Origin: Candidatus Moraniibacteriota bacterium
Lineage (GTDB): Bacteria; Patescibacteriota; Minisyncoccia; Moranbacterales; GCA-2747515
DNA length: 60,302 nucleotides
Assembly (NCBI GenBank): GCA_040772365.1
Contig: JAXGYI010000004.1
Span: 1 to 60,302, forward strand
Reading direction: 5' to 3'
In this document: one piece after another, positions 689 through 35,018 of the stretch
How the letters are laid out: the number at the start of each line of letters is the position of its first letter
Position numbering within the stretch: the stretch's first letter is position 1
Notes under the pieces: model-generated
Told to the model about the DNA's origin: nothing
Databases searched by the model: none
Seen by the model: only the letters and a program-made list of their open reading frames with translations
Translations under genes and position numbers: made by a program

Positions 689-761
689 GGCGACTATAGT
701 TCAGCGGTTAGAACATCGGTTTGTGGTACCGAGGATCTGGGTTCGATTCCCAGTAGTCGCC
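689..761 (+). tRNA. tRNA-His(GTG)
   Basis: Acceptor stem GCGACTA/TAGTCGC with G-1 (689) opposite discriminator C761; anticodon arm TCGGT-TTGTGGT-ACCGA; T-loop GGTTCGATTCC. A full CCA is not encoded (CAT follows). Confidence 0.95.
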
Positions 762-766
762 CATAT

Positions 767-807
767 ACATACAAGCACCCTGTATTATGCGGTGCTTGTA
801 TGTTTTT
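767..807. terminator. Hairpin between tRNA-His and the convergent 766-aa gene
   Basis: 13-bp stem ACATACAAGCACC (767-779) / GGTGCTTGTATGT (791-803) followed by TTTT; the opposing gene's stop codon lies in the loop. Confidence 0.7.
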
Positions 808-3085
808 GGAGGTACGCTGCAATTACTGTCTGCATCTTCTCATAACCAGCTTCTGTGAGAATTGTGCCAAAGTAATCATTATGAACACCATTCTCTGCAA
901 AATTTTCACCAGGATCAATAATTTTATATATTTTGCGAAATTGTGCAAACGGTACACGGCGCCCTTCATGATCGTGACTAGCCTCATAAAATGTACGAAA
1001 CGCTTCTAGCATGCTACCACCATTAGCTAAAATCCAGTTTTCCACACCGATCCCGCCGATCCCGCCGATACGATCGGGGTGGCTGTCGCGCCACATGAGA
1101 TACACTTCATGCTCTTTCAGTATGCGCTTTGTTAGTAAAATATTAGCAATTGTCTGTTCATAAGCGTCTTGTGACACATGATCACGAATCCATGCGAGAC
1201 GCTCTGCTGCAGCATCATGTGATCCATAGCGCAGCAGCTCAGACTTTGGCATAATTGTCACATCCACATCACACTGCTCCTGATGACCAGATACTGATGC
1301 ACGACGCAATCGTAGTTGCGAGATATGTTCACCTGCCATACTACTACCAGCATCGCGCTCTTCACCGCCAAAGGCCTCTTTTAGCTGTGCAAGAATTGTC
1401 GGCGCCTTATCAAGATCTGCCGCATCAAGACGAATAGTAAAATCAAAATCATAGTCATATGGCGCATTTGTACCACGCGCCGTAGATCCTGTTTTAAAAA
1501 TATCTGCCCCCGTAATTGCGGTTTCTGATGGATTGTGCAGCACAATACCCTGCGCAGCAAGCGTCTGGGATAGCGTCTCATAAATTGCTGTTTGTAGCAT
1601 TTCCACACGTACGCGATCTTTTTGTATAGCATTACGCAATTGTAGCACATCTTCATAGTGCCTATCCCCTGGACGTGTTGGAACAATATGTGGTGTATCC
1701 CCACCGTAACGCTCAATACCGCTACAGAACTTCTGTCGGTACTGCCTATATTGTTCCGGCGTAAAAAGCAGTGTGCCATAGACATCTGTCACGGGAATAT
1801 AGCGCCCATTCTGCGCAATGGAAAAAAAGAGATGAGACTTCCGCTTCTCATTATCGACAATATGTTCCGTCGCAATCAATAGGTCAATTTCACTAGCTGG
1901 CGGCCCTGTACGAATACCCCACTGCGCAGAACGCCGCTCCTCAGACCGCGAAAAGATTTCCATTTTATCTGTTGTGTATCCCTGTGTGGATGCCGTTGTA
2001 TCATGAAACTGATCGCGATTACGAATCAAAAAGTACACATCCGCTTCCTCTGTCCCGCTATGCGCATCGGTATGCATGCGAATAACATCATCGATGCGTG
2101 GTGGCACTGCCCCCACCCGAATCACATCGTAATCATATGGTGATAGATCTGCAGTAGATGATGGCGCAAATAATTCCCGCGATACTGTCGCACCCTGCAA
2201 AATCGCCTCCATATCATCAGCATACACTCCACGCAACACATCGCCATCACCGACGGTAAAAAACTTCTCTTGCAATTGGTGTGCTGTTTCTATACCACGC
2301 TGATGTCCAGCCTCCCGCGCCGCATCCATTGCAGCAAGCGCATCTTCAATTGACGCATAACCCGCTGGCGCTAAAAACATACGTGCAAGACGCGCTGTTA
2401 TCGACTGTCCCTGCACAGCACCAATTGAAGACATGACTGCCGCATAACGATCCTCTAATGTTCCCTCTAGCTGAACGGGATCATGATCACGAAATCCATT
2501 ACGTGCATTATCTCGCAAGGTCATAACTTTTGCGCATACACGCTCTGCATGTTCACGCTGCTCTTCTGTTAATGTGGAAAATCCATGTGTGGCAATGTGA
2601 TCAAATACGTCTTGTCCATCACGAAATGTCTCTAAGTATTCACGTAAATGACGGTTATTGGATGCGATGTGTACACGTAGTAAGTCACGGTAAAGCATAG
2701 CGTACCGCCTGCGCGACGACGCCTCCCGTAGACACGGACTCAGATCATTACGCCCCTCCAAAATGCGTGCCATTTTTTCTGGAGGATTGAGGATGGTAAA
2801 AGCACGAAAATACTTTCCAACGGGTGGTAAATTATTTTTAATAAAAATCTCTTCAATATCCGCAAACCTCTCCTCCGGATGGTCAGCATGCAGCAACTGA
2901 TCAATCAGGGCATCTTTGATCGCCTGAATTTCCTGAGACGGACACTGCGCGATACGCCATTCCAAACGCTCACGCACACGCTCACGTTCCACGCTATGCT
3001 GTTCATTGTATTCTTCGTACGCACGACTCTCTTCTGTAGAGATTTTACGTGGTACTCGTTCAAAAACATGTATTGTCATAGACAT
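785..3085 (-). CDS. Large multidomain protein with a C-terminal Pol-beta-superfamily (class I) nucleotidyltransferase domain
   Basis: 766 aa; motif TGSTARGTNAPYDYDFDF (GS...DxD), third acidic strand CDVDVTI, helical lobe LLTKRILK...GGIGGIGVENWILANGGS...IIDPG. N-terminal ~500 aa unassigned. Confidence 0.75.
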   Translation of the reverse strand: MSMTIHVFERVPRKISTEESRAYEEYNEQHSVERERVRERLEWRIAQCPSQEIQAIKDALIDQLLHADHPEERFADIEEIFIKNNLPPVGKYFRAFTILNPPEKMARILEGRNDLSPCLREASSRRRYAMLYRDLLRVHIASNNRHLREYLETFRDGQDVFDHIATHGFSTLTEEQREHAERVCAKVMTLRDNARNGFRDHDPVQLEGTLEDRYAAVMSSIGAVQGQSITARLARMFLAPAGYASIEDALAAMDAAREAGHQRGIETAHQLQEKFFTVGDGDVLRGVYADDMEAILQGATVSRELFAPSSTADLSPYDYDVIRVGAVPPRIDDVIRMHTDAHSGTEEADVYFLIRNRDQFHDTTASTQGYTTDKMEIFSRSEERRSAQWGIRTGPPASEIDLLIATEHIVDNEKRKSHLFFSIAQNGRYIPVTDVYGTLLFTPEQYRQYRQKFCSGIERYGGDTPHIVPTRPGDRHYEDVLQLRNAIQKDRVRVEMLQTAIYETLSQTLAAQGIVLHNPSETAITGADIFKTGSTARGTNAPYDYDFDFTIRLDAADLDKAPTILAQLKEAFGGEERDAGSSMAGEHISQLRLRRASVSGHQEQCDVDVTIMPKSELLRYGSHDAAAERLAWIRDHVSQDAYEQTIANILLTKRILKEHEVYLMWRDSHPDRIGGIGGIGVENWILANGGSMLEAFRTFYEASHDHEGRRVPFAQFRKIYKIIDPGENFAENGVHNDYFGTILTEAGYEKMQTVIAAYLQKHTSTA

Positions 3086-3090
3086 TGCCG

Positions 3091-3936
3091 TTAAAGTGCG
3101 TCCCGTAACTCCACAATAGCATGTGCTTCCGCAAGAATACGTTCTTTGCGGCGCCCATGAATACCTGCCCGCGCTAGTGCATCTGGGCGATCCAGGACAT
3201 CTCTACACAACACGGCACCCTGTGCAACAAGCGCATCCTTATGATAATTCGACAGTGCCGTAATTGCCGTAATTGGATGCAACCCTGTTTCATCAATTAA
3301 CTCTGCTAAAGAATTTCCTGTAGGATGACGCCAGCTCATCATTTGGATCTGCATGCACTGTGCATATTCTATAGCCTGTGTCGTAAACTGCGTATTCGTG
3401 ACAATCCACAGCACGTGATGGTGCTCTCCGCGCCCTTCATGAACATGTTCCCAGCGTGCAACGATGTCATCAAATCGTGCCTTCATATAGAGTGCTGTTT
3501 GCACATCACTCTTAAAACCGAGATTGTTGTGAAATTTACACTCAAAAACAAAGTGCCGCTCATCCTTATATGCCATGACATCAATTTCATGCGTAATGCA
3601 CATGCCGCGCACAATACGATTTGTACTCGTATCATACCCCTTCGCATTTAAGATACGTGAAAAATATTGCTCAAACGGATAACCACTGGGCCCCAATGAC
3701 TGTAATGCGCGTTTCAGGTTATAGCGTGCGGCAACAGGCGGATGCTTTTCTTTTAACTTCGCAAAGGTCGCGCGATGGATGGCGCGCGATGTTGGTAGGT
3801 GCTGCGAAATCACCTCCTGTGCAACATCTCGTGCAAGATGAGGATCTGCGCCAGCACGCCGCATCGACTGCTCCAATTTGTCAGCAGAAAAAAGTTCACG
3901 ATCCCCTGTTGATTTGAAAATGCTGTATTCTGCCAT
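3091..3936 (-). CDS. ATP-cone domain fused to an Mrr-like PD-(D/E)xK restriction endonuclease domain
   Basis: N-terminus IFKSTGDRELFSADKLEQSMRRAG (ATP cone); then PSGYPFEQYF...HEIDVMA...FECKFHN (D...ExK). Confidence 0.8.
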   Translation of the reverse strand: MAEYSIFKSTGDRELFSADKLEQSMRRAGADPHLARDVAQEVISQHLPTSRAIHRATFAKLKEKHPPVAARYNLKRALQSLGPSGYPFEQYFSRILNAKGYDTSTNRIVRGMCITHEIDVMAYKDERHFVFECKFHNNLGFKSDVQTALYMKARFDDIVARWEHVHEGRGEHHHVLWIVTNTQFTTQAIEYAQCMQIQMMSWRHPTGNSLAELIDETGLHPITAITALSNYHKDALVAQGAVLCRDVLDRPDALARAGIHGRRKERILAEAHAIVELRDAL

Positions 3937-3964: not shown

Positions 3965-4732
3965 CTACTCTTGATCATCTAACGCCGTAGTAATATGCGA
4001 TGCATCAATCAGTGCATAGGCCTCCTCTGCTGTATCCACAAGTCGATAGAGATCCATATCCTCTTCAGAGATTGCACGATTATTTCCCCATACAACACCG
4101 CGTAGCCAGTCCAGAAGTGGCTGCCAAAATTCACGATTCACTAAAATTACAGGAATCTTACTCGTTTTTTCTGTTTGGATTAACGTTAGCATTTCAAAAA
4201 GCTCATCAAGCGTGCCAAATCCGCCTGGGAAAAAAATATATACCTGCGAAGCAAAAGAGAGAATCACTTTACGCGAAAAGAAAAAATCAAAAGATTCTGC
4301 ATCTGTTAAATAGGGGTTACGTCGCTCGCTAAAGCCATGTTCTGGTAAAGTGATATTGATGCCCACGCTACGCCCACCTGCCTCAAATGCTCCCTTATTT
4401 GCCGCCTCCATAATTCCAGGTCCGCCACCGGTAAAAACTGCAAAGCCTTTCGTGGCCAACATCGCAGCTAGTTTTTCCGCCTCACTGTAGATCTGCGACT
4501 TAAAATCCAATCGCGCACTGCCAAAAATACTAGCAGCTTTATCAAAACGCGTTAAAAAATCATGTCCCTTCACAAATTCTGACTGGATCTTCAGGATGCG
4601 CCACGATAAGCCGCTTGTATAGGATGCTGCGCCAGTAATTGTCGGCGACAGAAACTCTCGCTCGCGATTCAGGGGGATATGATACGTCTCACCATCAACA
4701 TTTAAAATGACATTTGTATTATGGGAGTGCAT
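3965..4732 (-). CDS. LOG-family (TIGR00730-like) nucleotide-processing protein
   Basis: Motifs SIFGSAR, TGGGPGIMEAANKGA, FFFSRK, PGGFGTLDELFE. Confidence 0.9.
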   Translation of the reverse strand: MHSHNTNVILNVDGETYHIPLNREREFLSPTITGAASYTSGLSWRILKIQSEFVKGHDFLTRFDKAASIFGSARLDFKSQIYSEAEKLAAMLATKGFAVFTGGGPGIMEAANKGAFEAGGRSVGINITLPEHGFSERRNPYLTDAESFDFFFSRKVILSFASQVYIFFPGGFGTLDELFEMLTLIQTEKTSKIPVILVNREFWQPLLDWLRGVVWGNNRAISEEDMDLYRLVDTAEEAYALIDASHITTALDDQE

Positions 4733-22886: not shown

Positions 22887-23435
22887 TTATGTTATCAAAG
22901 ATACCCAATCATAAAACACCGTAAGTTGTCTTACAATATCTTCTTGTATTTTTGCGCTAACCACATTACCATCTTCGTCAAAATCATCAGAAAATGCATG
23001 AGCAAATACTTCTGGCTGTGGTAGCACATAGAGATTTAAACATGTTGCCACTTGCCGTAAATGATATTGTGCACGTGAGCTCCCCATTCCCCCACCTGCA
23101 CCCATGATGGCTGCGGGTTTTTTAGAAAGCAAATAGTTATCTGGTTCGCGTGATGCCCAGTCTAGTGCATTTTTGAGCGCTGGCGCTATGGAATAGTTAT
23201 ACTCTGTAGCAGCAAAAAGAAATCCGCGCGCCTCATGCATGTGCGCAAAGAGTTTTTCTACAGACGCCGGTTTTTGTGCAATATCCTGATTATAAAACGG
23301 TATATCTGCTATATCAGCTATCACGATCTGCATGTCAGCAGGTGCATGTTCCTGTGCATAACGGAGCATCCCCTTGTTTGTTGATTTTTCTCGCAAACTG
23401 CCAGAAATTGCTAAAACTTTGAACATAGTACTCAC
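22887..23435 (-). CDS. NAD(P)H-dependent FMN reductase (ChrR/SsuE-like)
   Basis: ISGSLREKSTN, TEYNYSIAPALKNALDWASR, GSSRAQYHLRQ. Confidence 0.9.
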   Translation of the reverse strand: MSTMFKVLAISGSLREKSTNKGMLRYAQEHAPADMQIVIADIADIPFYNQDIAQKPASVEKLFAHMHEARGFLFAATEYNYSIAPALKNALDWASREPDNYLLSKKPAAIMGAGGGMGSSRAQYHLRQVATCLNLYVLPQPEVFAHAFSDDFDEDGNVVSAKIQEDIVRQLTVFYDWVSLIT

Positions 23436-23567
23436 TGTTTATTATACTTGATGCGTATTTCATAAAAATGTTACGCAAAATTTTCGCACGCAGTACACAC
23501 AACAAACGAAAATGTTCTCAGATAAGACGCTGGTTACATGATAGCATGATTCTATAATTGTGATAAT

Positions 23568-26500
23568 GCGAATAAAAGTAGAAATTCTATTAGTCTATTT
23601 GGCAGGCAAAGTATATTACCAATTGTACCGATCTACAAAAGTAGAAATTCTATTAGTCTATTTGGCGAACGTTGTACCGGCAGGAACGGTAGATCTACAA
23701 AAGTAGAAATTCTATTAGTCTATTTGGCCAATGAAATTTCTAAAAACGAATTATATCTACAAAAGTAGAAATTCTATTAGTCTATTTGGCGTGCGAGTCA
23801 GGTTGGAGCTTAATAATCTACAAAAGTAGAAATTCTATTAGTCTATTTGGCGGACTTACGGTTTCTTCAAAATAAAATCTACAAAAGTAGAAATTCTATT
23901 AGTCTATTTGGCTTTACTTAATACGAAAAGTAAATGTGATCTACAAAAGTAGAAATTCTATTAGTCTATTTGGCAAGGCACTATAATTTGATAATTTATA
24001 TCTACAAAAGTAGAAATTCTATTAGTCTATTTGGCTCGCTGGTGATAAGTTCCATATTTCCATATCTACAAAAGTAGAAATTCTATTAGTCTATTTGGCA
24101 TTTATCACCTACTTTCGCAAGAGTCATCTACAAAAGTAGAAATTCTATTAGTCTATTTGGCGGAAAAATTAAATGAGTTAAATATTGATCTACAAAAGTA
24201 GAAATTCTATTAGTCTATTTGGCTTGCCTAGTATAAAAAAACAAACTTAATCTACAAAAGTAGAAATTCTATTAGTCTATTTGGCGCGTAACCAGCCCCA
24301 GCCCCCTGAAAATCTACAAAAGTAGAAATTCTATTAGTCTATTTGGCGCATCGAACCAGACCTAATGAAGCGTATCTACAAAAGTAGAAATTCTATTAGT
24401 CTATTTGGCGATGGCAGGGATTAAAAGAAGACTTATCTACAAAAGTAGAAATTCTATTAGTCTATTTGGCCAACCAAGGCAACTAATCGTCAATCATCTA
24501 CAAAAGTAGAAATTCTATTAGTCTATTTGGCTGGCGTGGAAATTTTAGCTCTTTGTTATCTACAAAAGTAGAAATTCTATTAGTCTATTTGGCCTTCCTG
24601 ATGATGCAGTAAAGGCATTATCTACAAAAGTAGAAATTCTATTAGTCTATTTGGCAGGTAGAAAACTTCATCGTAAACGCTCGATCTACAAAAGTAGAAA
24701 TTCTATTAGTCTATTTGGCGATGAAACAAATAACTCTTGAAACAAATCTACAAAAGTAGAAATTCTATTAGTCTATTTGGCGAGTACGAATATCATAAAA
24801 GAATACAATCTACAAAAGTAGAAATTCTATTAGTCTATTTGGCATGAGAAGCTAGAGGAGCTAATTGACATCTACAAAAGTAGAAATTCTATTAGTCTAT
24901 TTGGCTAGCGGTTTTGGGGCTCCGCACAAAATCTACAAAAGTAGAAATTCTATTAGTCTATTTGGCCCTGTGGCTGACATAAAGAGGGAAATATCTACAA
25001 AAGTAGAAATTCTATTAGTCTATTTGGCCTAAAGGCGTTCACGTATTCTATTGATCTACAAAAGTAGAAATTCTATTAGTCTATTTGGCGGTGAGATAAC
25101 CAAATATGAAATTAATCTACAAAAGTAGAAATTCTATTAGTCTATTTGGCATGATCCATTGATACTAGTTGCCTTAATCTACAAAAGTAGAAATTCTATT
25201 AGTCTATTTGGCTTTATAGACACATGCTTGTAACAAATATCTACAAAAGTAGAAATTCTATTAGTCTATTTGGCAGGAAAAGGCGACACATGGTACGATA
25301 CATCTACAAAAGTAGAAATTCTATTAGTCTATTTGGCCTGTCTATATCATAAGTAAATGGCTACTATCTACAAAAGTAGAAATTCTATTAGTCTATTTGG
25401 CAGGCAAAGTATATTACCAATTGTACCGATCTACAAAAGTAGAAATTCTATTAGTCTATTTGGCGAACGTTGTACCGGCAGGAACGGTAGATCTACAAAA
25501 GTAGAAATTCTATTAGTCTATTTGGCCAATGAAATTTCTAAAAACGAATTATATCTACAAAAGTAGAAATTCTATTAGTCTATTTGGCTTTTTTATATCG
25601 CCGATCGTTTTTAATCTACAAAAGTAGAAATTCTATTAGTCTATTTGGCTGGCAATTGTATTAAGGGGTAAAAAGATCTACAAAAGTAGAAATTCTATTA
25701 GTCTATTTGGCACAGTTCTGGTGCAATATCTGCAGCATCTACAAAAGTAGAAATTCTATTAGTCTATTTGGCTTATTTGTTCCGTCCGACAATTTCATGA
25801 TCTACAAAAGTAGAAATTCTATTAGTCTATTTGGCTTGTAGAGGCAGTAAAGCCTATTCTGCAATCTACAAAAGTAGAAATTCTATTAGTCTATTTGGCT
25901 ATCGTAGAAAGCATTGCGATCACAATCTACAAAAGTAGAAATTCTATTAGTCTATTTGGCCATGCGGGAAAAAATGATTGAAAGTATCTACAAAAGTAGA
26001 AATTCTATTAGTCTATTTGGCTCGCCGTTCCATGGGGCGCTGGTAGAATCTACAAAAGTAGAAATTCTATTAGTCTATTTGGCATGCGGCGTATGATGCG
26101 AGTGTTATCATCTACAAAAGTAGAAATTCTATTAGTCTATTTGGCAAGAATACAGCGCGGGTATATAATAATCTACAAAAGTAGAAATTCTATTAGTCTA
26201 TTTGGCAGGCATTATGCGTATGGAGGTGCGAAATCTACAAAAGTAGAAATTCTATTAGTCTATTTGGCCCAATCTTAATTGATGACATAATGGGCATCTA
26301 CAAAAGTAGAAATTCTATTAGTCTATTTGGCATTTTTTTCATACTTATAAATCTCGATCTACAAAAGTAGAAATTCTATTAGTCTATTTGGCCAGAAGAG
26401 ATTGAACACTTACAATCCATCTACAAAAGTAGAAATTCTATTAGTCTATTTGGCTTGCTTTACATCTTGGAGATTTTCCGATCTACAAAAGTAGAAATTC

Positions 26501-28754
26501 TATTAGTCTATTTGGCCCGACAATCTCCAAGATATCAAACTAGCATCTACAAAAGTAGAAATTCTATTAGTCTATTTGGCACTCAAAAGTTTTGTCCTCT
26601 TGCTTATCTACAAAAGTAGAAATTCTATTAGTCTATTTGGCAATACATACGGCGCAAACGTCTTATGATCTACAAAAGTAGAAATTCTATTAGTCTATTT
26701 GGCCTGACACATCACGAATCCTTATACTGATAATCTACAAAAGTAGAAATTCTATTAGTCTATTTGGCAAGAAAACAAAAAACAAAACATATAAATCTAC
26801 AAAAGTAGAAATTCTATTAGTCTATTTGGCATATATAAGTACGAAAAAAGAATAATATCTACAAAAGTAGAAATTCTATTAGTCTATTTGGCAAGTAGCC
26901 ATTTAATGATGATATACACAATCTACAAAAGTAGAAATTCTATTAGTCTATTTGGCTGGAATTCTATTACTGCCAAATATTATCTACAAAAGTAGAAATT
27001 CTATTAGTCTATTTGGCGAATGAGCACCGTATTGGCAGATACATCTACAAAAGTAGAAATTCTATTAGTCTATTTGGCGATTATTTTTGGGCTAACAAGT
27101 CGCATCTACAAAAGTAGAAATTCTATTAGTCTATTTGGCATTTATCTGTAGCTTCCGCGACCTTTGATCTACAAAAGTAGAAATTCTATTAGTCTATTTG
27201 GCACGACGAAAATTTATATCTATCATATATCTACAAAAGTAGAAATTCTATTAGTCTATTTGGCTTAAGTTATGATTAAAATATAATTTAACATCTACAA
27301 AAGTAGAAATTCTATTAGTCTATTTGGCGCAGAGCTAGTATAATTAACCTTTGTATCTACAAAAGTAGAAATTCTATTAGTCTATTTGGCAAGCTCGCTG
27401 GAAAATCCACCTATTATCTACAAAAGTAGAAATTCTATTAGTCTATTTGGCTTCCAAGAAGACGGTGTGACTCCTTTAATCTACAAAAGTAGAAATTCTA
27501 TTAGTCTATTTGGCGTGGCGAAAAAATCTTCAGAAGGAAATCTACAAAAGTAGAAATTCTATTAGTCTATTTGGCAGGCATGCTTCAGCTTATGAGTTAT
27601 TTATCTACAAAAGTAGAAATTCTATTAGTCTATTTGGCCTGAAATGTATGCTTACATTTTGAAGATCTACAAAAGTAGAAATTCTATTAGTCTATTTGGC
27701 AATCCCGAGCCACGTGTAATAGATTATCTACAAAAGTAGAAATTCTATTAGTCTATTTGGCTATAAAGGGCACCATGAAAAATACTCGATCTACAAAAGT
27801 AGAAATTCTATTAGTCTATTTGGCCCTGTGGCTGTATCCGCCTGTGAAATATCTACAAAAGTAGAAATTCTATTAGTCTATTTGGCCTTCGTATGATTTT
27901 TCTCTATCAATTTATCTACAAAAGTAGAAATTCTATTAGTCTATTTGGCGATCATCATCGGCGAACCTCAAGCCCATCTACAAAAGTAGAAATTCTATTA
28001 GTCTATTTGGCGTGCGTTTTATCCTGAAGATTATCGTGAATCTACAAAAGTAGAAATTCTATTAGTCTATTTGGCAGGTGTTAGATGGAATTGAACTAAA
28101 TATCTACAAAAGTAGAAATTCTATTAGTCTATTTGGCCTGCTTAATTATTTGCTGCCCCCTCTATCTACAAAAGTAGAAATTCTATTAGTCTATTTGGCC
28201 CCAACATAAAAAGCAGAATTAGAAATCTACAAAAGTAGAAATTCTATTAGTCTATTTGGCATATGCAACTATACGGCATGTGTCCATCTACAAAAGTAGA
28301 AATTCTATTAGTCTATTTGGCATGTTGGAAGTACGGATTTTATATGAATCTACAAAAGTAGAAATTCTATTAGTCTATTTGGCCTTTTTTAGCCGCGCCT
28401 TGTCTGCCCATCTACAAAAGTAGAAATTCTATTAGTCTATTTGGCGCACACATATGGCACTCTAATCTGTATCTACAAAAGTAGAAATTCTATTAGTCTA
28501 TTTGGCCTTCAAAAATTGATCAAGATATTAAATCTACAAAAGTAGAAATTCTATTAGTCTATTTGGCTGGCATTACGGGTTTTATAAAATTAAATCTACA
28601 AAAGTAGAAATTCTATTAGTCTATTTGGCGAAAACACAAACAGGAATTATCATCAATCTACAAAAGTAGAAATTCTATTAGTCTATTTGGCAAATATGAC
28701 TACTCTTGCAAACTCAATATCTACAAAAGTAGAAATTCTATTAGTCTATTTGGC
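23568..28754 (-). CRISPR. Type V-A CRISPR array: 84 repeats (trailer copy truncated) and 83 spacers of 25-29 nt
   Basis: 36-nt repeat, minus strand GCCAAATAGACTAATAGAATTTCTACTTTTGTAGAT, ending in the Cas12a handle AATTTCTAC-TTTT-GTAGAT. The 23568-23603 copy lacks the final GTAGAT (trailer); leader side at 28755 next to cas2. Counts are by hand; 80 unique spacers. Confidence 0.98.
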
Positions 28755-28917
28755 TGCAGAAACCTTATATTTAAGCCAAAAAGATGCAAACTGGCCACAG
28801 GGGGCGCAACGACTTTTTGGCTTAAATACTACAAACCCCCAATACCGATGGTGGGGTTTTGCATTTTTTTCAATAGGCTGATAAGAATTTATACCTTTAC
28901 ATAATTGTAAAAGTGCT
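28755..28917 (-). promoter_or_regulatory. CRISPR leader with inverted repeats
   Basis: Non-coding 163 bp between cas2 and the first repeat; perfect 16-bp IR at 28768-28783/28813-28828 and an imperfect hairpin at ~28832-28861. Confidence 0.8.
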
Positions 28918-29199
28918 TCAGGAAATACAGATAAGATCCGACTCTTCATGCTTTGCATACCCATACCGCCTCACCTTACCGTCGCACCCCTTGCATGTGT
29001 GAAAAATCACTATACTATCCGCGCCAGTAAAATGTTTCTTATACTTCAATTCTACCTCTGTCATGATATTTTGCAAGACCCTATTGCTATCGCGTACCTG
29101 CCACACGGAATACTGAATGCGATTGCCATATTTTTCCAAAAATCTTGCAAAATGTGTTCGTGTTTTGTCGTTTTCAAAATCATACGATACGATGAGCAT
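28918..29199 (-). CDS. cas2: CRISPR-associated endoribonuclease Cas2
   Basis: MLIVSYD...RTHFARFLEKYGNRIQYSVW, 93 aa. Confidence 0.95.
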   Translation of the reverse strand: MLIVSYDFENDKTRTHFARFLEKYGNRIQYSVWQVRDSNRVLQNIMTEVELKYKKHFTGADSIVIFHTCKGCDGKVRRYGYAKHEESDLICIS

Positions 29200-29212
29200 A
29201 GTGCGTTGTTAA

Positions 29213-30181
29213 TTAGCGAATAACAAATGGTGCGACCTCACCCTCATCGTTCAAAATGAGATAGTAGTGATCGCGTACGTAGTGATAGATGTCTTCTTTG
29301 TAGCGCAAAATTTCCGTGAGAAAAATGCGCGCATACTTTCCACTTGCTTTGTAAGATAAATAGTATTGCCCCTGCCGGCACCCAAAATCCCTGGAGTCAA
29401 ATTGCCCTAGTGTGTGCATCTTCACCACTGCACGATCAATGATGCACCGAAACGGCTCCATCATATCACAGGCAAGTGATTTTCTCTGAAAAAAGAGCTG
29501 GTGGTAGATACCTTTGTATGTATCAAATCCATAAACGCGCAAAATGGCATCGGTGAAATGAAACAGAAAACTATACCCCATGTCCAGCAAAATATTGTTT
29601 TCATCGACTTTGCCGCGCGGCACACGCCTATACCAATCAATCTGCGCAAAATACGCCGCAAAATAGTCCTTGGAGATCACACCTTCCACACCGCGCAATG
29701 ACGCCAGATCTTTTGCGGCGGTAATTTTTTGCACCATCAATCGCTTGTACGCGATACGTGTCTTGCCTGCAATGGTGTTGATCCCGCTTCCGCGCAACAA
29801 TGCCAAGCTATTGCGCAACTTGTTTGCTACAATATGTTTTGCCATTGCCAACGCCTGCGCATCATCCACGGCATACTGCTGTTGACGCAAAAGGTAATTT
29901 CCCTCCGCATACGATGAGACACTTGCATAAGTTTCGCAATTTCTCTTGAGAAAATAGACAGATGCGCCTGCGCGCGTGATCTTCTGCAACAATTTGCTTG
30001 TCATCGTGAAATCCCCAATCACAAAAATTGCGATAAGTTTTGCAATAGGAATTTTATCTTTTGTTTTTCCGTCCACAGTGATAAGCACATTTTCATTGCG
30101 TAAACTCAATGCGCATCCGCTCAGCGCAGAAGCGTCCAAAAGAAAGATCTGCTTTTGACGAAAATCTGGTAATTGTATCAT
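29213..30181 (-). CDS. cas1: CRISPR-associated integrase Cas1 (type V-A/PREFRAN-like)
   Basis: LRGVEG, NILLDMGYSFLF, GIYHQLFFQRKSLACDMMEPFRCIID. Confidence 0.95.
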   Translation of the reverse strand: MIQLPDFRQKQIFLLDASALSGCALSLRNENVLITVDGKTKDKIPIAKLIAIFVIGDFTMTSKLLQKITRAGASVYFLKRNCETYASVSSYAEGNYLLRQQQYAVDDAQALAMAKHIVANKLRNSLALLRGSGINTIAGKTRIAYKRLMVQKITAAKDLASLRGVEGVISKDYFAAYFAQIDWYRRVPRGKVDENNILLDMGYSFLFHFTDAILRVYGFDTYKGIYHQLFFQRKSLACDMMEPFRCIIDRAVVKMHTLGQFDSRDFGCRQGQYYLSYKASGKYARIFLTEILRYKEDIYHYVRDHYYLILNDEGEVAPFVIR

Positions 30182-30726
30182 ATGGCTTTCTTACATAGTT
30201 CACGATAAATACAGTTCTCACACTGCGCGGCATACGCCGTCTTTGCAACATGTAATGGATGGAAGCCACGCATGCGTACAAGCGTTTCTTCAAAACGCGC
30301 GCAACTCTCCGTGTCCATGGTGACATCGTATTTTTTGTTATCCGTCAACGAATGTAACGTCATTTTTTGCACACGATGTCCCATTTCCTCCAAGCAACAC
30401 TTCTGTGCCCACAGCTGAAATCGATAGCCTTCATGCACCTTTTTAATTGTGCGTTTTCGCTCTATGAGCTCACCTGTTTTTGTGTCAAACAGATCAATTT
30501 TTCCAACAATGCCGTATTGTTCTGAAAAAACCTCAATGCCCTGTAAGAGTGTTTTTCTTCCCTCCGCCGTCTTGCAATCCACGGTGGCATGAGCCAATCG
30601 CCCTGCAATTTGTGGCCGCGCCTTGTAGTGCCCGTCATCAAAACCTTCATAGACACTGTGAAAATATAGCGAATGTGGACAAAACAGAAAATCATTGATT
30701 TTGGAAATTTGGATATAATCGTACAT
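30178..30726 (-). CDS. cas4: CRISPR-associated protein Cas4 (type V-A)
   Basis: MYDYIQISKINDFLFCPHSLYFH, GKIDLFD, LIERK, C-terminal CENCIYRELC. Start placed at ATG 30726 because a consensus promoter lies at 30758-30786. Confidence 0.93.
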   Translation of the reverse strand: MYDYIQISKINDFLFCPHSLYFHSVYEGFDDGHYKARPQIAGRLAHATVDCKTAEGRKTLLQGIEVFSEQYGIVGKIDLFDTKTGELIERKRTIKKVHEGYRFQLWAQKCCLEEMGHRVQKMTLHSLTDNKKYDVTMDTESCARFEETLVRMRGFHPLHVAKTAYAAQCENCIYRELCKKAI

Positions 30727-30747
30727 AAAACATGCCACAAAAATACA

Positions 30748-30786
30748 AAAACAGCGCATTATATCATATATACGCTGTTTTGTCAA
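30748..30786 (-). promoter_or_regulatory. Consensus sigma70 promoter of cas4-cas1-cas2, overlapped by a 9-bp inverted repeat
   Basis: Minus strand TTGACA (30786-30781), 17 nt, TATAAT (30763-30758) with TG extension; AAAACAGCG (30748-56) / CGCTGTTTT (30773-81) flank the -10. Confidence 0.8.
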
Positions 30787-30802
30787 TATTCCTCTTTTCG
30801 CC

Positions 30803-33800
30803 CTACCTTCTTGTACAATTTTCCACGATAAATGCATCCCACTCTTCATTTTTAATAAAGAGATCTGGATTTGTTTTGTCTCTTTTTTCAGACTTACTCC
30901 ACGTATTAATTCTCTCCAAAATCAAAACTCCCTTACGTGCAATATTATACGCTCCATTAGCATCCCCGTTTTTTGGTAAATTTTTATCAAACTGCTCTGC
31001 TTTGCGACTGTCAAAAAACGGTTCCACAGGAGAAAGAATAAAATCTTCATCAGAAATTTTTTGCGCAGTTTTTTGATCCTGACAATCAAAGTTTCCAGAT
31101 TCTTTCAATGTGCGTATTTCCTTGTGTAAGTTGCCGTCGGTGTTTCTTATTTGGCATATCAAACGAAAATAGAAAACGATGCCTTCTAAGAGATCTTTTG
31201 AAGAATTTTCATTGATCTGGCTAATGATATTTTGTGAGATGTCAATTTTTTCAGCAATAAATAATTTTCTTAGGTTCTTGGTAATACTTCCATCACCTGC
31301 TGCAGGAAATTTTTTGTACTCCCATTGATTATTGCTTTCTTGATTGCGATAACCCTTCCATCGTTCAACATTGCTGCATACACGCCACTGTCTTCCTTCA
31401 TAAGTATATACAAAATCAAATCGCTGATTCTCATCACTCCATTCAATCGCATCTAGCTTTTCTTTTAACATCTTGCTTGTCAATTTTGCATTTTCATAAC
31501 GCAAGTACAAATGTGGTCGCCATCCACTCACAGGATCAATTTGAGAAGTATAGGCTGCTGTCGTATAAAAGATCATTCCCGTTTGCTTCCCCATCTCTTT
31601 GAGAGTTTTCACGGGAGCAGTGAGTTGATGTGCATTAAGCACTCCGCCGACTTCGGCTGGTTCTTTCGTTTTATCCACACAAAAATTTAATTTATCCAAG
31701 AGCGCCTTCTCCAACTGTTGGTATGTTGATTTTTCAATGCCACCACGCACTTGTTTAAAGCGCATATTTAAATCCTCAAAAACGATGATTGCATTATTCT
31801 CTATCGCAAGTTTTGCAATTTTATGTACGACGTGTGAAATATAGCCTTTTTTCAAATCCTTGATCTCATCCACTTTTTCCCAATCTCTCCTCTGCTGTTC
31901 GCGATTTTTTGCCCTCTTCTCTAACTCCCAATGATAATCTTTACCATTGATCACGTTCAAGGAATTACTCTCAAGAATTTTTCCTTTCTGATTAATCAAG
32001 GAATAGTAGACTAAGTGTTTTTCACCACGATCAATGCCCAAAATATTGATGTGTGGATTTTTTGCCAAAAATGCATTAACTTCCTGGTTAAACTGAAATG
32101 GCGTTTTTTCTCCCGCTGTCCTATTGATCGTAATTGGCACATGGAAAAAACTCTTGTCTTCCGTATAACGCTTTTTAGCTATAATGCCCCGCGTAAAATT
32201 GCGCTTCTCCTCTACCCTTGCGATTGATTTCGGTCTATGGAAGAGTTCCGCTTCTCCATTGAGTTTAAAGATGAAACTACGCAATGCATTTTCCTTAGAA
32301 AAAACATTTTCAAAATACATCGTATGCACGTTTTTCGTTCCACTTCTCTTCTTGCCAATATTCCAATCTCTGTTTTTTATATGGAAAAGATACAAATCAC
32401 CTGACTGATTCTTCTCATCAATATATTGTTCCGAAACATTTTGCCAAGAAATTTTATAGCCTTGATTAGATAAGTCATTTGTAAATTGTAAAAAATCTTC
32501 ATACTGACTTGTACTTTTTAACGTAAAATCAAAATCAAAATAGACCAGTCTTTCTTTATAGTAATCTATAAACTTGTGAAGATCTTTTATATTAAAAGCT
32601 TCACTAGATTTTAAGTATGTTTTTTGAACCCTAATTTCATTTATTTCCCGTGGAAGATATTTATTTTTAAAATATTCAAGAATTTTGTTTTCTCCATCAA
32701 AATCTCCTAGACTATCTATAGGAATATTGTTTTTCGAACAGAAGTTATTCCACTTTAGATCTCCCTTACCACCAGTCTTTCTAACCGTTTTTCCATTTAT
32801 AGCAATTAGATTCTGAATATCTTTTGAAGCATCTGAAATTTGCTTATATTCCATTTTTTCATAACCCGTCCCCTCGAAATTATTTCTGTATTTATCATCG
32901 AAAATCTTGTTTGCACCACCAGATTTTTTCATCACTCCCAAAAAGTAGTTGCCATTTTTTCTGAGAATCACCGCCGTATTATCAGACTCTTTGTTTTTAT
33001 CCCAACCATTCGCCAGAGTTGGATTCTCAAAATTCAACTTCCATTTTTGCACTTCCTCCCATGGCTTTTTGGTCAAATAGTTCCGCAAGCGATTATAGGG
33101 CTGCACAATTTTTTCATACGCCTCCGCAAAAAAATCGTTATAATATTTCTCATAAAAAGCGTCATCTGTTTCCAAAAAATCCACGTTCCAACGATTTTTG
33201 TACTCCAGAGAAAAATACTTTGCAAATTGATAAATTGACAAAAGATTGTCTGCAAACAACTTCACCGTTGCCGTGAGTTCTTTTGTTTTTTTCAACTCAT
33301 CTTTACGAAGCTCCTCGTCCAATTTTTGTGCAAAAATTTTATAACCCTGCACTTCCCCATTTCCTGATTTTGCGAGAAGCTCTGAGAATTCTTGCAATAA
33401 AATATGCAAAAACTGCTGCCAAACATTATCCGCTGTTGTACGCTCTTGGTGATACTTCTCTTTCCAAAAAACAGCAGTGCCGTCAAAACCCGCAGTAATT
33501 TTCTCCAAAGATGCCTGAACATACGCCACCTTGATATGATTGGGAAATGTGTATCTTTCCTGCTTCTTGTCATACCGTGCCGACTTGTCTTTGTTTTCCT
33601 TGAATACCTCAAACAATTGTTCCTCCCATAGTCTTATATCCACAGAATATTTGCGTGACAATGTCTCGAATCCTTTTTTGGTAAAATAGATCCTTGTTAG
33701 ATCAAAGTCGGAGTTATGGTACGCAAAATCCTCAAAAAGTTTTTTCAAAACTACCACCGATGCATTACCTGTCTGCAACAACTCTGTCAATTCCTTTTTC

Positions 33801-34780
33801 AGTTGTTCCTCACTGTCAATTTCGTCAATGAATTTCTCCTTTGGACTTAAAATTTGTTTGTCCAATGTTTTGAGGTGCTGTATTTTGATTTTTTTTCTCT
33901 GCTTAAACAGGTTTGCTTCTTTTTTAATGTGCCCAACGACTTGGTTATATCCATCGATACCCGTGCCAAGATCGCTGCCACTGCCTTTCTTGCCCTGCAA
34001 AACGAAGTCGCCAAAATTCCCCGCATTTTTTATCATATCACAATACTTCTCCGGCAACGTCTCCAAAAATTCTTTTGGGTATTTTTCCAACAACCATCGA
34101 TTTTCAAAACATCGCCTAAGATTATCCGTAATTCTTGTGGCAATAGCAGTTGCTGTCCCATCTGCCTTATAGAAATTTGCACGCGTTTCAAAGAATTTTT
34201 TAAAATAGCCTATAAAGCCCTTCCAGCCTTCAAAAATAGAAATGGTTTCTTCTATCACTTCACCGGTCTTTTGATCTGTTCTGCTAATCACCTCAATTGT
34301 ATCTTCGTTATATGTGCCATCATCATTTCTTCCATATCGTGGCAAAAGCACATTTTCAAAAACACCCTCCTCGGACAAAAAGCCGATATTTTTATTTTTC
34401 AATCCTGTATATTTTTCTGTTGCCCATTTTTTTGCTTGTGCATTTAAAGCTATAACAACTTCTCTCCGTAACACCCCCTCTTTATCTTCCACAGTGTTTC
34501 TAAGAGTCTTATTTTTTCTATCATCCATAAACTTCTTCAGCGCTGCCTCATACTCTCTCAAATCGGAAAATACAAAACCCTCTAGCCCTGCCTGAATAAA
34601 CTCTCGATGCAGTCTGTCAAAAAATGGTTTTGTTTTAATATATTTTTCACGAATTGCGCGATCAATATCAAAAACATTGTTTTCTTTCAGCATCTCCTGT
34701 GTCTTCCCCACCGGCTTCAACTCAAAACGCAACGTTTTGGAAAGGCTATACTTGTTTGTAAATTGATCAAAAACGCTCAT
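30803..34780 (-). CDS. cas12a: Type V-A effector Cas12a (Cpf1), 1325 aa
   Basis: YSLSKTLRFELKPVG, KLNFENPTLANGWDKNKE, NVHTMYF, RuvC motifs GIDRGEKHL / FEDLN / GDANGAYNIARKG all intact. Confidence 0.97.
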   Translation of the reverse strand: MSVFDQFTNKYSLSKTLRFELKPVGKTQEMLKENNVFDIDRAIREKYIKTKPFFDRLHREFIQAGLEGFVFSDLREYEAALKKFMDDRKNKTLRNTVEDKEGVLRREVVIALNAQAKKWATEKYTGLKNKNIGFLSEEGVFENVLLPRYGRNDDGTYNEDTIEVISRTDQKTGEVIEETISIFEGWKGFIGYFKKFFETRANFYKADGTATAIATRITDNLRRCFENRWLLEKYPKEFLETLPEKYCDMIKNAGNFGDFVLQGKKGSGSDLGTGIDGYNQVVGHIKKEANLFKQRKKIKIQHLKTLDKQILSPKEKFIDEIDSEEQLKKELTELLQTGNASVVVLKKLFEDFAYHNSDFDLTRIYFTKKGFETLSRKYSVDIRLWEEQLFEVFKENKDKSARYDKKQERYTFPNHIKVAYVQASLEKITAGFDGTAVFWKEKYHQERTTADNVWQQFLHILLQEFSELLAKSGNGEVQGYKIFAQKLDEELRKDELKKTKELTATVKLFADNLLSIYQFAKYFSLEYKNRWNVDFLETDDAFYEKYYNDFFAEAYEKIVQPYNRLRNYLTKKPWEEVQKWKLNFENPTLANGWDKNKESDNTAVILRKNGNYFLGVMKKSGGANKIFDDKYRNNFEGTGYEKMEYKQISDASKDIQNLIAINGKTVRKTGGKGDLKWNNFCSKNNIPIDSLGDFDGENKILEYFKNKYLPREINEIRVQKTYLKSSEAFNIKDLHKFIDYYKERLVYFDFDFTLKSTSQYEDFLQFTNDLSNQGYKISWQNVSEQYIDEKNQSGDLYLFHIKNRDWNIGKKRSGTKNVHTMYFENVFSKENALRSFIFKLNGEAELFHRPKSIARVEEKRNFTRGIIAKKRYTEDKSFFHVPITINRTAGEKTPFQFNQEVNAFLAKNPHINILGIDRGEKHLVYYSLINQKGKILESNSLNVINGKDYHWELEKRAKNREQQRRDWEKVDEIKDLKKGYISHVVHKIAKLAIENNAIIVFEDLNMRFKQVRGGIEKSTYQQLEKALLDKLNFCVDKTKEPAEVGGVLNAHQLTAPVKTLKEMGKQTGMIFYTTAAYTSQIDPVSGWRPHLYLRYENAKLTSKMLKEKLDAIEWSDENQRFDFVYTYEGRQWRVCSNVERWKGYRNQESNNQWEYKKFPAAGDGSITKNLRKLFIAEKIDISQNIISQINENSSKDLLEGIVFYFRLICQIRNTDGNLHKEIRTLKESGNFDCQDQKTAQKISDEDFILSPVEPFFDSRKAEQFDKNLPKNGDANGAYNIARKGVLILERINTWSKSEKRDKTNPDLFIKNEEWDAFIVENCTRR

Positions 34781-34980
34781 AAGATTATTTCACAAAATAT
34801 ATATCTATGTGTATCTTACTGTGTTTTCAATAAAATGACAAACACTGTTTAAGGCCATCATGAAAACCACCACATGCATAGTTTTGTATATCATAGATTT
34901 ATGCTTCGTTAACAATGACTGCAGAACACCTATACACCGCTCAGATAGGAGAGCAGTAAAGAAATGAGGAGAGGAATAGT

Positions 34981-35018
34981 AAAAACCCCATTCGCAAAAT
35001 ATCGCGAACGGGGTTTTT
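34981..35018 (-). terminator. Intrinsic terminator separating the spermidine-synthase-like gene from cas12a
   Basis: Minus strand AAAAACCCCGTTCGC-gatatttt-GCGAATGGGGTTTTT. Confidence 0.75.

Follow-up and report, generated by a model that had tools for sequence, protein, structure and literature searches.

The archaeal class I CCA enzyme (A. fulgidus; PDB 1uet, 3ovs and 4x4p; TIGR03671) joins a nucleotidyltransferase head and neck to a body and tail that hold tRNA. Cid1, TbTUT4 and GLD-2/TENT2 are eukaryotic RNA-tailing enzymes with basic RNA grooves, and the CD-NTases, cGLR and OAS (SMODS) belong to the same fold class and also have neither body nor tail, the CD-NTases being accompanied by a CBASS-type operon and effector. 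Tpt1/KptA and DarT have the split-sheet fold of ADP-ribosyltransferases (ARTs). DSR2-type defence enzymes are single proteins that combine an NAD+-using domain (SIR2) with a helical-repeat sensor. Here we analysed a gene at 785..3085 on the minus strand of a 60,302-nucleotide stretch of DNA (the window) from a Candidatus Moraniibacteriota bacterium. Model-based analysis showed that its 766-aa product is probably a soluble, acidic, three-domain protein, in which a helical domain is followed by a divergent ART-fold domain and a class I bilobal Pol-beta nucleotidyltransferase. At the fold level this is a new architecture assembled from known folds, and it belongs to a large undescribed family.

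The gene is one open reading frame (ORF) in the ORF listing of the window, with an ATG start, 766 codons and a stop, and a further ATG lies 2 codons past the first. The ORF, the AlphaFold2 (AF2) model and the ratio of non-synonymous to synonymous substitution rates (dN/dS) define this whole coding sequence as the core-only (short) form of a helical / ART-like / nucleotidyltransferase family. An earlier note on this DNA, made from the sequence alone, had given the same ORF and length, which we confirmed, and had omitted the strand. All motif strings that it quoted were found in the translation: GSTARGT...DYDFDF at residues 533-549 (window 1442-1489) and DVD at residues 606-608 (window 1262-1270), for both of which the translation was re-checked, LLTKRILKEHEVY at 650-662, GIGGIGVENWILANGGSMLEAF at 675-696, IIDPG at 722-726, and LRGV...EAILQGATVSRELF (also written LRGV...ILQGATVSRELF) at 284-306. 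The protein had been called unassigned, and curated libraries indeed gave sub-threshold matches only. The sole Pfam match was NTP_transf_2 (20.9 bits against a cut-off of 21, residues 526-556), NCBIfam gave cca_archaeal at E 0.037, and PADLOC gave no significant match, its hit to 'Cyclase' having E 0.028; PHROGs and a PDB sequence search returned no matches.

The whole-protein AF2 model was built with 11 homologues in the alignment and had a predicted local distance difference test score (pLDDT) of 79.9 and a predicted template modelling score (pTM) of 0.81; the models were matched to known folds by Foldseek against the PDB. Along the chain the model has an all-helical part (17-272), an alpha/beta part (283-455), a helix of 35 residues (477-511), a beta-sheet core (527-613) and a helical lobe (622-763). 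With conservation taken into account, this gives five features, all on the minus strand of the window. The N-terminal all-helical domain (residues 17-272; 2270..3037) is drawn from AF2 secondary structure and conservation; P70, F81, N84, P87, K91, F96, S116, L119, D134, G242 and R263 are conserved family-wide, and the domain has no Pfam or PDB sequence match to any known family. The ART-fold domain (residues 276-470; 1676..2260) was delimited by a separate AF2 model, Foldseek and conservation. A long 'spine' helix (residues 477-511; 1553..1657), assigned as helix by DSSP, leads into the nucleotidyltransferase inside the region matched by Cid1, the CCA enzyme and CdnE, and has a counterpart in OAS, cGAS, Cid1 and CCA enzymes. 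The catalytic core (residues 521-613; 1247..1525) is marked by NTP_transf_2, the motifs and strands 527-532, 546-553 and 604-613. The helical second lobe of the PAP/OAS/CCA-neck type (residues 622-763; 797..1222) is marked by Foldseek, by cca_archaeal at 521-662 and by conservation, with N648, K653, K657, Y662, GG.GG.G.E (674-682), N728 and H735 as residues of note. Because the pTM is high, the model suggests that the nucleotidyltransferase and the ART-like domain form a rigid assembly.

The protein first seemed to be an orphan with about 10 homologues, but this was rejected, because a length filter had limited the first homology search and a profile search gave 1,216 clusters. The exhaustive profile search covered 1.84 billion representatives and returned these clusters at E <= 1e-3, with 833 at <= 1e-30; their members are almost all 1,200-3,000 aa long, and the entire 766-aa protein aligns to their C-terminus. 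A second search with a long member as query gave 541 proteins. These alignments show that, as judged by sequence, the proteins of a very large and unnamed family, most of them giant, end in a conserved module of ~730 aa with three domains. Its helical, ART-like and nucleotidyltransferase parts follow one another in this order in 205 of 207 sequences, and 58 positions that are at least 95% conserved over 201 sequences are distributed across all three domains. The N-terminal extension has a median length of 744 aa and is missing in only about 10 of 206 sequences; it is rich in Leu, Glu and Lys, and 174 of 183 extensions have no hydrophobic segment of the signal-peptide or transmembrane kind.

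Every named protein of the family is a 'hypothetical protein' of Patescibacteria, under labels that include Parcubacteria, Uhr-, Magasanik-, Zambryski-, Taylor-, Vogel-, Levy-, Davies-, Roizman-, Collier-, Peri-, Gracili- and Saccharibacteria, and a second deep clade comes from metagenome-assembled genomes (MAGs) of gut Bacilli and Erysipelotrichaceae. Both the Bacillota clade and that of the candidate phyla radiation retain the candidate catalytic residues of the ART-like and nucleotidyltransferase domains. No Pfam domain was found in the family proteins, and Pfam gave nothing real on the N-terminal extensions of nine giant members. When each domain was searched with 19-35 members against Pfam, NCBIfam, PADLOC and PHROGs and with profiles against the PDB, only weak NTP_transf_2 and cca_archaeal matches were obtained, and nothing for the helical or ART-like domains. 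A fold search of BFVD gave nothing significant, and a literature search found no publication on this family or on ART-nucleotidyltransferase proteins in these bacteria. As to the labels themselves, MAGs with the labels Daviesbacteria and Rikenellaceae (L042 and L054) share an identical module sequence, and several small-genome MAGs are labelled Gammaproteobacteria or Micavibrio; the taxon labels of such bins are unreliable.

The earlier note had read the C-terminus as a class I (OAS/CD-NTase/archaeal CCA-like) nucleotidyltransferase, and the comparison with CD-NTase, OAS, CCA and ART folds that it proposed was run on the models and found a Pol-beta fold as well as ART-fold matches. The C-terminal 300 residues (bilobal unit 477-763) matched bilobal Pol-beta enzymes at probability 1.0, with E 2e-4 to 2e-2 over ~300-380 columns. 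The matches include Cid1 (4fh3, E 2.3e-4), the archaeal CCA enzyme (1uet, E 5.7e-4) and CdnE (6wt9, E 4e-3), and further TbTUT4, NF90/NF45, GLD-2, cGLR (8gjw), CdnD (6p82), EfCdnE and RmCdnE. The motif hG[GS]-x9-13-Dh[DE]h is present as G533-S534, 11 residues and D546-F-D548, and it is 100% conserved in the 201 sequences and in both clades; the third catalytic carboxylate is D608, 99% conserved, which the predicted model places on the neighbouring strand 604-613. K653 and Y662 are likewise among the 99-100% conserved residues that both deep clades keep. The nucleotidyltransferase motifs are thus not a product of chance, since they are conserved at 99-100% across the family sequences and in both clades.

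Cid1, TbTUT4 and GLD-2/TENT2 are the best overall structural match (template modelling (TM) score ~0.4-0.53 for 4fh3, target-normalised) and share the bilobal nucleotidyltransferase, the PAP-associated lobe and the N-terminal helix. However, identity is 12-14%, neither PAP_assoc nor NTP_transf_2 rises above threshold, and the domains of the 766-aa protein are acidic, unlike the basic RNA grooves of these enzymes. The archaeal CCA enzyme shares head and neck, the Pol-beta core GS...DxD with a third Asp, and the helical lobe pattern K..LK....Y / GxxGxxxE..L. It is the sole family that recurs at the sequence level: its head and neck were matched by 11 of 24 diverse members (best E 3e-4), while the other matches among these 24 were NTP_transf_2 (8), GlnD (2), CBASS_cyclase_b (1) and SMODS (1, E 0.007). 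The cut-off of TIGR03671 (cca_archaeal; 281.3 bits) was not reached, the scores being 12.8-15.5 bits, and only model positions 36-166, which are head and neck, align. The 766-aa protein differs from this enzyme in being acidic, accessory and bacterial, in having ~470 conserved residues (helical and ART-like) ahead of the head, and in having no body or tail, which follows from its end directly after the helical lobe (last helix 745-763). This end had been pointed out in the earlier note, and the end of the profile and the domain-order survey showed that the lack of body and tail is family-wide.

The structural matches to the predicted model do not separate RNA-tailing enzymes from CD-NTases, so we weighed whether the protein could be a synthase of a second messenger or oligonucleotide (CD-NTase/OAS/cGAS-like), the first option of the earlier note. 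The product would be cyclic or linear, possibly primed on NAD+ or ADP-ribose, with the ART-like and helical domains as a built-in sensor or regulator. The fold matches to CdnE, cGLR, CdnD, EfCdnE and RmCdnE (E 4e-3 to 2e-2) speak for it, as do the weak PADLOC, SMODS and CBASS_cyclase_b matches, the layout without body or tail, acidic surfaces that suit small-molecule substrates, and the patchy distribution. However, none of these matches amounts to membership in a CD-NTase or SMODS profile, and the sequence leans to the archaeal CCA enzyme in 11 of 24 members and to SMODS in 1 only. The profile search of PDB sequences with the nucleotidyltransferase found cGAS alone, at E 1.3. The protein adds large conserved N-terminal domains that CD-NTases do not have, and SAVED, STING and CARF receptor domains were not detected in it. 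The CBASS comparison also fails in the neighbourhood of the gene. When 1,123 ORFs within 4 kb of the gene at 80 species/loci were clustered, no conserved partner gene, and hence no effector or receptor gene, was found; the commonest neighbour family (generic ABC ATPases) occurred in 8 of 80 loci, and nine annotated loci agreed. We consider a synthase of this kind a serious rival too, though rather unlikely.

The middle segment beginning with LRGV had been noted to resemble loosely an ADP-ribosyltransferase-like strand-helix-strand, and the fold matches are consistent with this. The middle domain (residues 270-476), modelled alone by AF2 with 35 homologues, had a pLDDT of 84.2, and ARTs made up most of its top 50 Foldseek matches, the remainder being GNATs with probability < 0.05. 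The top match was the NAD+ lobe of yeast Tpt1 (7yw4, E 5.7e-3, probability 1.0, target-normalised TM 0.62), followed by five DarT entries (E 0.02-0.4, TM ~0.4, ~210 columns) and then by EcPltA, the cholera, heat-labile and pertussis toxin A subunits, a diphtheria-toxin homologue, Rhs TreX and CteC. Residue equivalence to ARTs was drawn from the order of secondary structure (topology), not from superposition. In strand order the conserved residues are K/R285-G286 on strand 1, D313-x-T315-P316-x-D318-x-D320 leading into strand 2, E376 on strand 5 and H388-x-G390-x-R392-T393-G394 on strand 6. By topology, the basic residue of strand 1 and the Glu of strand 5 sit at the usual catalytic places of an ART, but strand 1 has no His, an S-T-S motif is absent, and the domain has neither a PF01885 match nor the RNA lobe of Tpt1. 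To our knowledge, the acid-rich D-x-T-P-x-D-x-D segment and the H-x-G-x-R-T-G strand have no counterpart in ARTs.

These matches also bear on the second option of the earlier note, an enzyme that heals and tails RNA 3' ends. In this scheme a terminal phosphate on an RNA such as tRNA would first be removed or modified by the Tpt1-like domain at the expense of NAD+, after which the CCA/TUTase-like domain would lengthen the cleaned end by nucleotides. Nucleic acids are the substrates of the closest structural matches to either domain (Tpt1 and DarT; Cid1, the archaeal CCA enzyme, TUT4 and GLD-2), the recurrent weak match to cca_archaeal points in the same direction, no Tpt1 was found in the window genome, and KptA/Tpt1 is an established RNA-repair ART (PMC9503650). 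On the other hand, both domains are acidic on average, with family-wide net charges of -9.9 +/- 3.2 (ART-like) and -9.0 +/- 4.5 (nucleotidyltransferase), and the tRNA-binding body and tail are missing along with the N-terminal RNA lobe and PF01885 signature of Tpt1. The window genome already has a CCA/PolyA_pol enzyme of class II, the 80 loci show no conserved partner of the RNA ligase, 2H or RtcB type, and presence in ~3% of the genomes of the phylum would be odd for a repair function. We regard RNA-end healing as a serious rival, yet one that is probably wrong.

The toxin A subunits in the Foldseek list (EcPltA, cholera, pertussis, Rhs TreX) raise the question of a delivered effector or toxin of an episymbiotic bacterium, in which the two domains would be 'warheads' that ADP-ribosylate and nucleotidylate host proteins. 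The family does occur in host-dependent bacteria with reduced genomes, its N-terminal regions are variable, and an immunity gene would be unnecessary if the producer lacks the target. But the toxin matches have low probabilities (0.1-0.7) and rank under Tpt1 and DarT, the 766-aa protein, like 174 of the 183 extensions, is free of signal peptides and transmembrane segments, conserved neighbours of the secretion-system or immunity kind were not found, and a conserved C-terminus behind a variable N-terminus is the reverse of polymorphic toxins. An exported weapon of this sort appears very improbable.

The reading that we prefer is that an ART-like domain and an active nucleotidyltransferase work together on an acceptor other than RNA, in a conflict-type role. 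The nucleotidyltransferase would bind NTP-Mg2+ through G533/S534, D546/D548/D608 and K653/Y662 and pass a nucleoside monophosphate (NMP) to a hydroxyl acceptor, as its conserved residues and modelled fold suggest. The ART-like domain, tightly packed against it in the model, may bind or use NAD+ (or an ADP-ribose-like ligand) at a non-canonical, acid-rich candidate site, and it could supply or modify the same substrate or gate the transferase. Because both domains are acidic, no RNA-binding body or tail is present and no partner gene accompanies the family, we lean weakly to a protein or small nucleotide as acceptor rather than a long RNA. We also lean weakly to a conflict-type (defence-like) role of the family rather than a housekeeping one, because of the patchy distribution, the insertion at a tRNA, the missing partner gene and the variable helical extensions of the long forms, in which the extension would be the regulatory or sensor part. 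DSR2-type enzymes offer an analogy, as they are likewise large, stand-alone and patchy and combine an NAD+-related domain with a long variable helical region and no partner gene; the folds differ, however (SIR2 against ART-like plus nucleotidyltransferase), and the window copy has no variable region. Taken as a whole, we give this reading an even chance.

Several observations weigh against it. Curated ART families (PF01885, DarT and toxin families) were absent among the Pfam matches of 35 domain sequences at E <= 10, and the middle domain had no match in the PDB by sequence. Because no Foldseek match of that domain reached E 1e-3 (best E 5.7e-3) and no ART family was found by sequence, the ART assignment, drawn from a predicted structure, is consistent but stays at the level of the fold. 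The canonical H-Y-E, R-S-E and H-H-h triads are not present as such, position 285 on strand 1 is Lys in 97% of the family in place of the Arg of ARTs, and the domain could serve without catalysis, as a ligand-binding module or a scaffold. By analogy, Cid1, the CCA enzyme, TUT4, Tpt1 and DarT, which all act on nucleic acids, favour RNA or DNA as the substrate, and the net charge of a domain says little about what it acts on. What suggests a defence-like role comes down to the patchy distribution, the insertion site and occasional insertion sequence (IS), diversity-generating retroelement or methyltransferase neighbours, and the phage, plasmid and IMG/VR collections held no homologue.

A bolder form of the same chemistry is an autonomous two-step enzyme class. 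The ART-fold domain would move ADP-ribose from NAD+ to a target or release it, and the nucleotidyltransferase would then extend its ribose hydroxyl with NMPs, so that the product would be a new ADP-ribose-primed oligonucleotide tag or signal; the short form without His388 would be a natural variant that separates both steps. OAS adenylates NAD+ and ADP-ribose in vitro. We think it distinctly improbable that such a two-step class is at work here.

Comparison with the family shows the window copy to be a short form, derived and rare in the family, that has no variable N-terminal extension. The short-form clade consists of the window protein and four close relatives (65-99% identity, 757-772 aa), and in the tree it is set off by a long stem (0.95 changes per site) within a subclade of the Moraniibacteria/Parcubacteria type. 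The gene differs from its 99% relative by 27 synonymous and 8 non-synonymous changes (dN/dS 0.085), and dN/dS was 0.09 against the 77% relative and 0.115 against the 68% relative, which means that the short form is under purifying selection with all three domains constrained. The nucleotidyltransferase site of the window copy is unaltered with respect to family conservation. Where the family is at least 95% conserved, the protein departs at six positions, all of them in its ART-like domain: K285R, G299A, G307A, T315S, G348A and H388Q. Position 388 is His in 95% of the family and Gln in the window copy, and among 80 species Gln at His388 and Ser at Thr315 are found in the short-form clade only. 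The loss of His388 suggests, from the sequence, that the chemistry of the ART-like domain is altered or reduced in the window copy.

Two other loci touch on the short form. The sister genome (G007:C30) holds a second, long-form copy in two overlapping frames of 771 and 646 aa (L047 1143-3458 and 3425-5365), which is either a frameshift pseudogene or an assembly error and falls in the same Moraniibacteria/Parcubacteria-type subclade. Another short member, P0167 (793 aa), follows IS3-family transposase genes (HTH_Tnp_1, rve; L102 4957-6020) that overlap its start and is a truncation by IS3 insertion.

The window genome (0.92 Mb, 99% complete) carries the gene together with 1 other of the 12 genomes of its genus; none of 49 others of the order has it, and it was found in 9 of 301 sampled genomes of the phylum, all listed ones of which are 0.5-1.4 Mb. 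Downstream, a convergent tRNA-His(GTG) at 690..762 on the plus strand, found by ARAGORN and Rfam, lies 23 nt past the stop and marks the insertion site. Upstream and in the same direction, Pfam identified a gene for an ATP-cone plus Mrr-type nuclease (3091..3936, minus strand), which ends 5 nt before the start codon and is context rather than partner, and a LOG / SLOG-cluster-4 family gene (Lysine_decarbox, E 2e-31; 3965-4732, minus strand). The nuclease has 281 aa and consists of the ATP-cone, an Mrr-type PD-(D/E)XK nuclease and a weak AF1548-like match at the C-terminus, with weak PADLOC matches to CARF-PDDEXK and ZorD nuclease parts; its gene behaves as a core gene, an unusual trait for a nuclease of the restriction type.

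This arrangement could be taken for a signalling or defence operon whose third gene is the nucleotidyltransferase. All three genes point the same way and are separated by 28 and 5 nt, with a promoter-like site at 4803-4776 upstream of LOG and no terminator-like site in between, and relatives at 65-99% identity keep the arrangement. However, of 11 genus genomes 10 carry the ATP-cone/Mrr gene, and in the 9 of these without the 766-aa gene tRNA-His adjoins the ATP-cone/Mrr gene directly. In two genomes with the empty site (G006 and G009) the tRNA-His is directly downstream of the ATP-cone/Mrr gene and co-oriented with it (L113 4355-4427 and L114 2646-2718). In addition, distant homologues have unrelated, mostly housekeeping neighbours, and no LOG or Mrr gene is beside any of them. 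A three-gene module was therefore rejected, its linkage being an insertion behind a core operon, and a joint function of these genes is largely refuted and most unlikely.

At all short-form loci (the window, L002, L003, L016 and L116) the gene lies between the nuclease and tRNA-His, which is convergent and 20-50 nt past the stop. Thus the 766-aa gene is accessory and stands alone, having been inserted beside tRNA-His and behind a core operon, since the nuclease is core and tRNA-His adjoins it directly in genomes without the gene. The tRNA-His flips orientation between empty and occupied sites, so acquisition was accompanied by inversion or replacement of the tRNA gene. At ~775-803 on the minus strand an inverted repeat, CAAGCACC-N11-GGTGCTTG, covers the stop codon and immediately precedes the convergent tRNA-His; it may be a terminator or processing hairpin.

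Some further observations were made around these loci. At L001 16599-17464, bAvd and reverse-transcriptase genes of a diversity-generating retroelement lie ~4 kb downstream of homologue P0004, and at L003 an IS1595 transposase lies downstream, the region 3' of the gene being variable. In the window itself, G+C falls from ~0.48 to 0.32-0.40 at ~23,000-35,000, where a 1,325-aa ORF is found at 30803-34780, and the minus strand of 2-415 encodes the N-terminal part of a DUF5122 beta-propeller repeat protein, which has a hydrophobic leader before the repeats and is probably exported.

What is new here is the minimal short form with His388Gln, the comparison with empty tRNA-His sites, the clustering of neighbours at 80 loci, the domain charges and the dN/dS analysis. 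The 766-aa copy is the minimal natural form and the most tractable member of the family, easier to express or crystallise than its relatives of 1,200-3,000 aa, and its natural substitution of a near-invariant His makes it a convenient entry for biochemistry. More than 1,200 clusters of this conserved 730-aa two-enzyme module stand without a name or a Pfam family in Patescibacteria and reduced gut Bacilli. An ART fold and a CCA/cGAS-type nucleotidyltransferase in one polypeptide would join NAD+ and NTP chemistry, and the family could reveal a new macromolecular modification or nucleotide signal.

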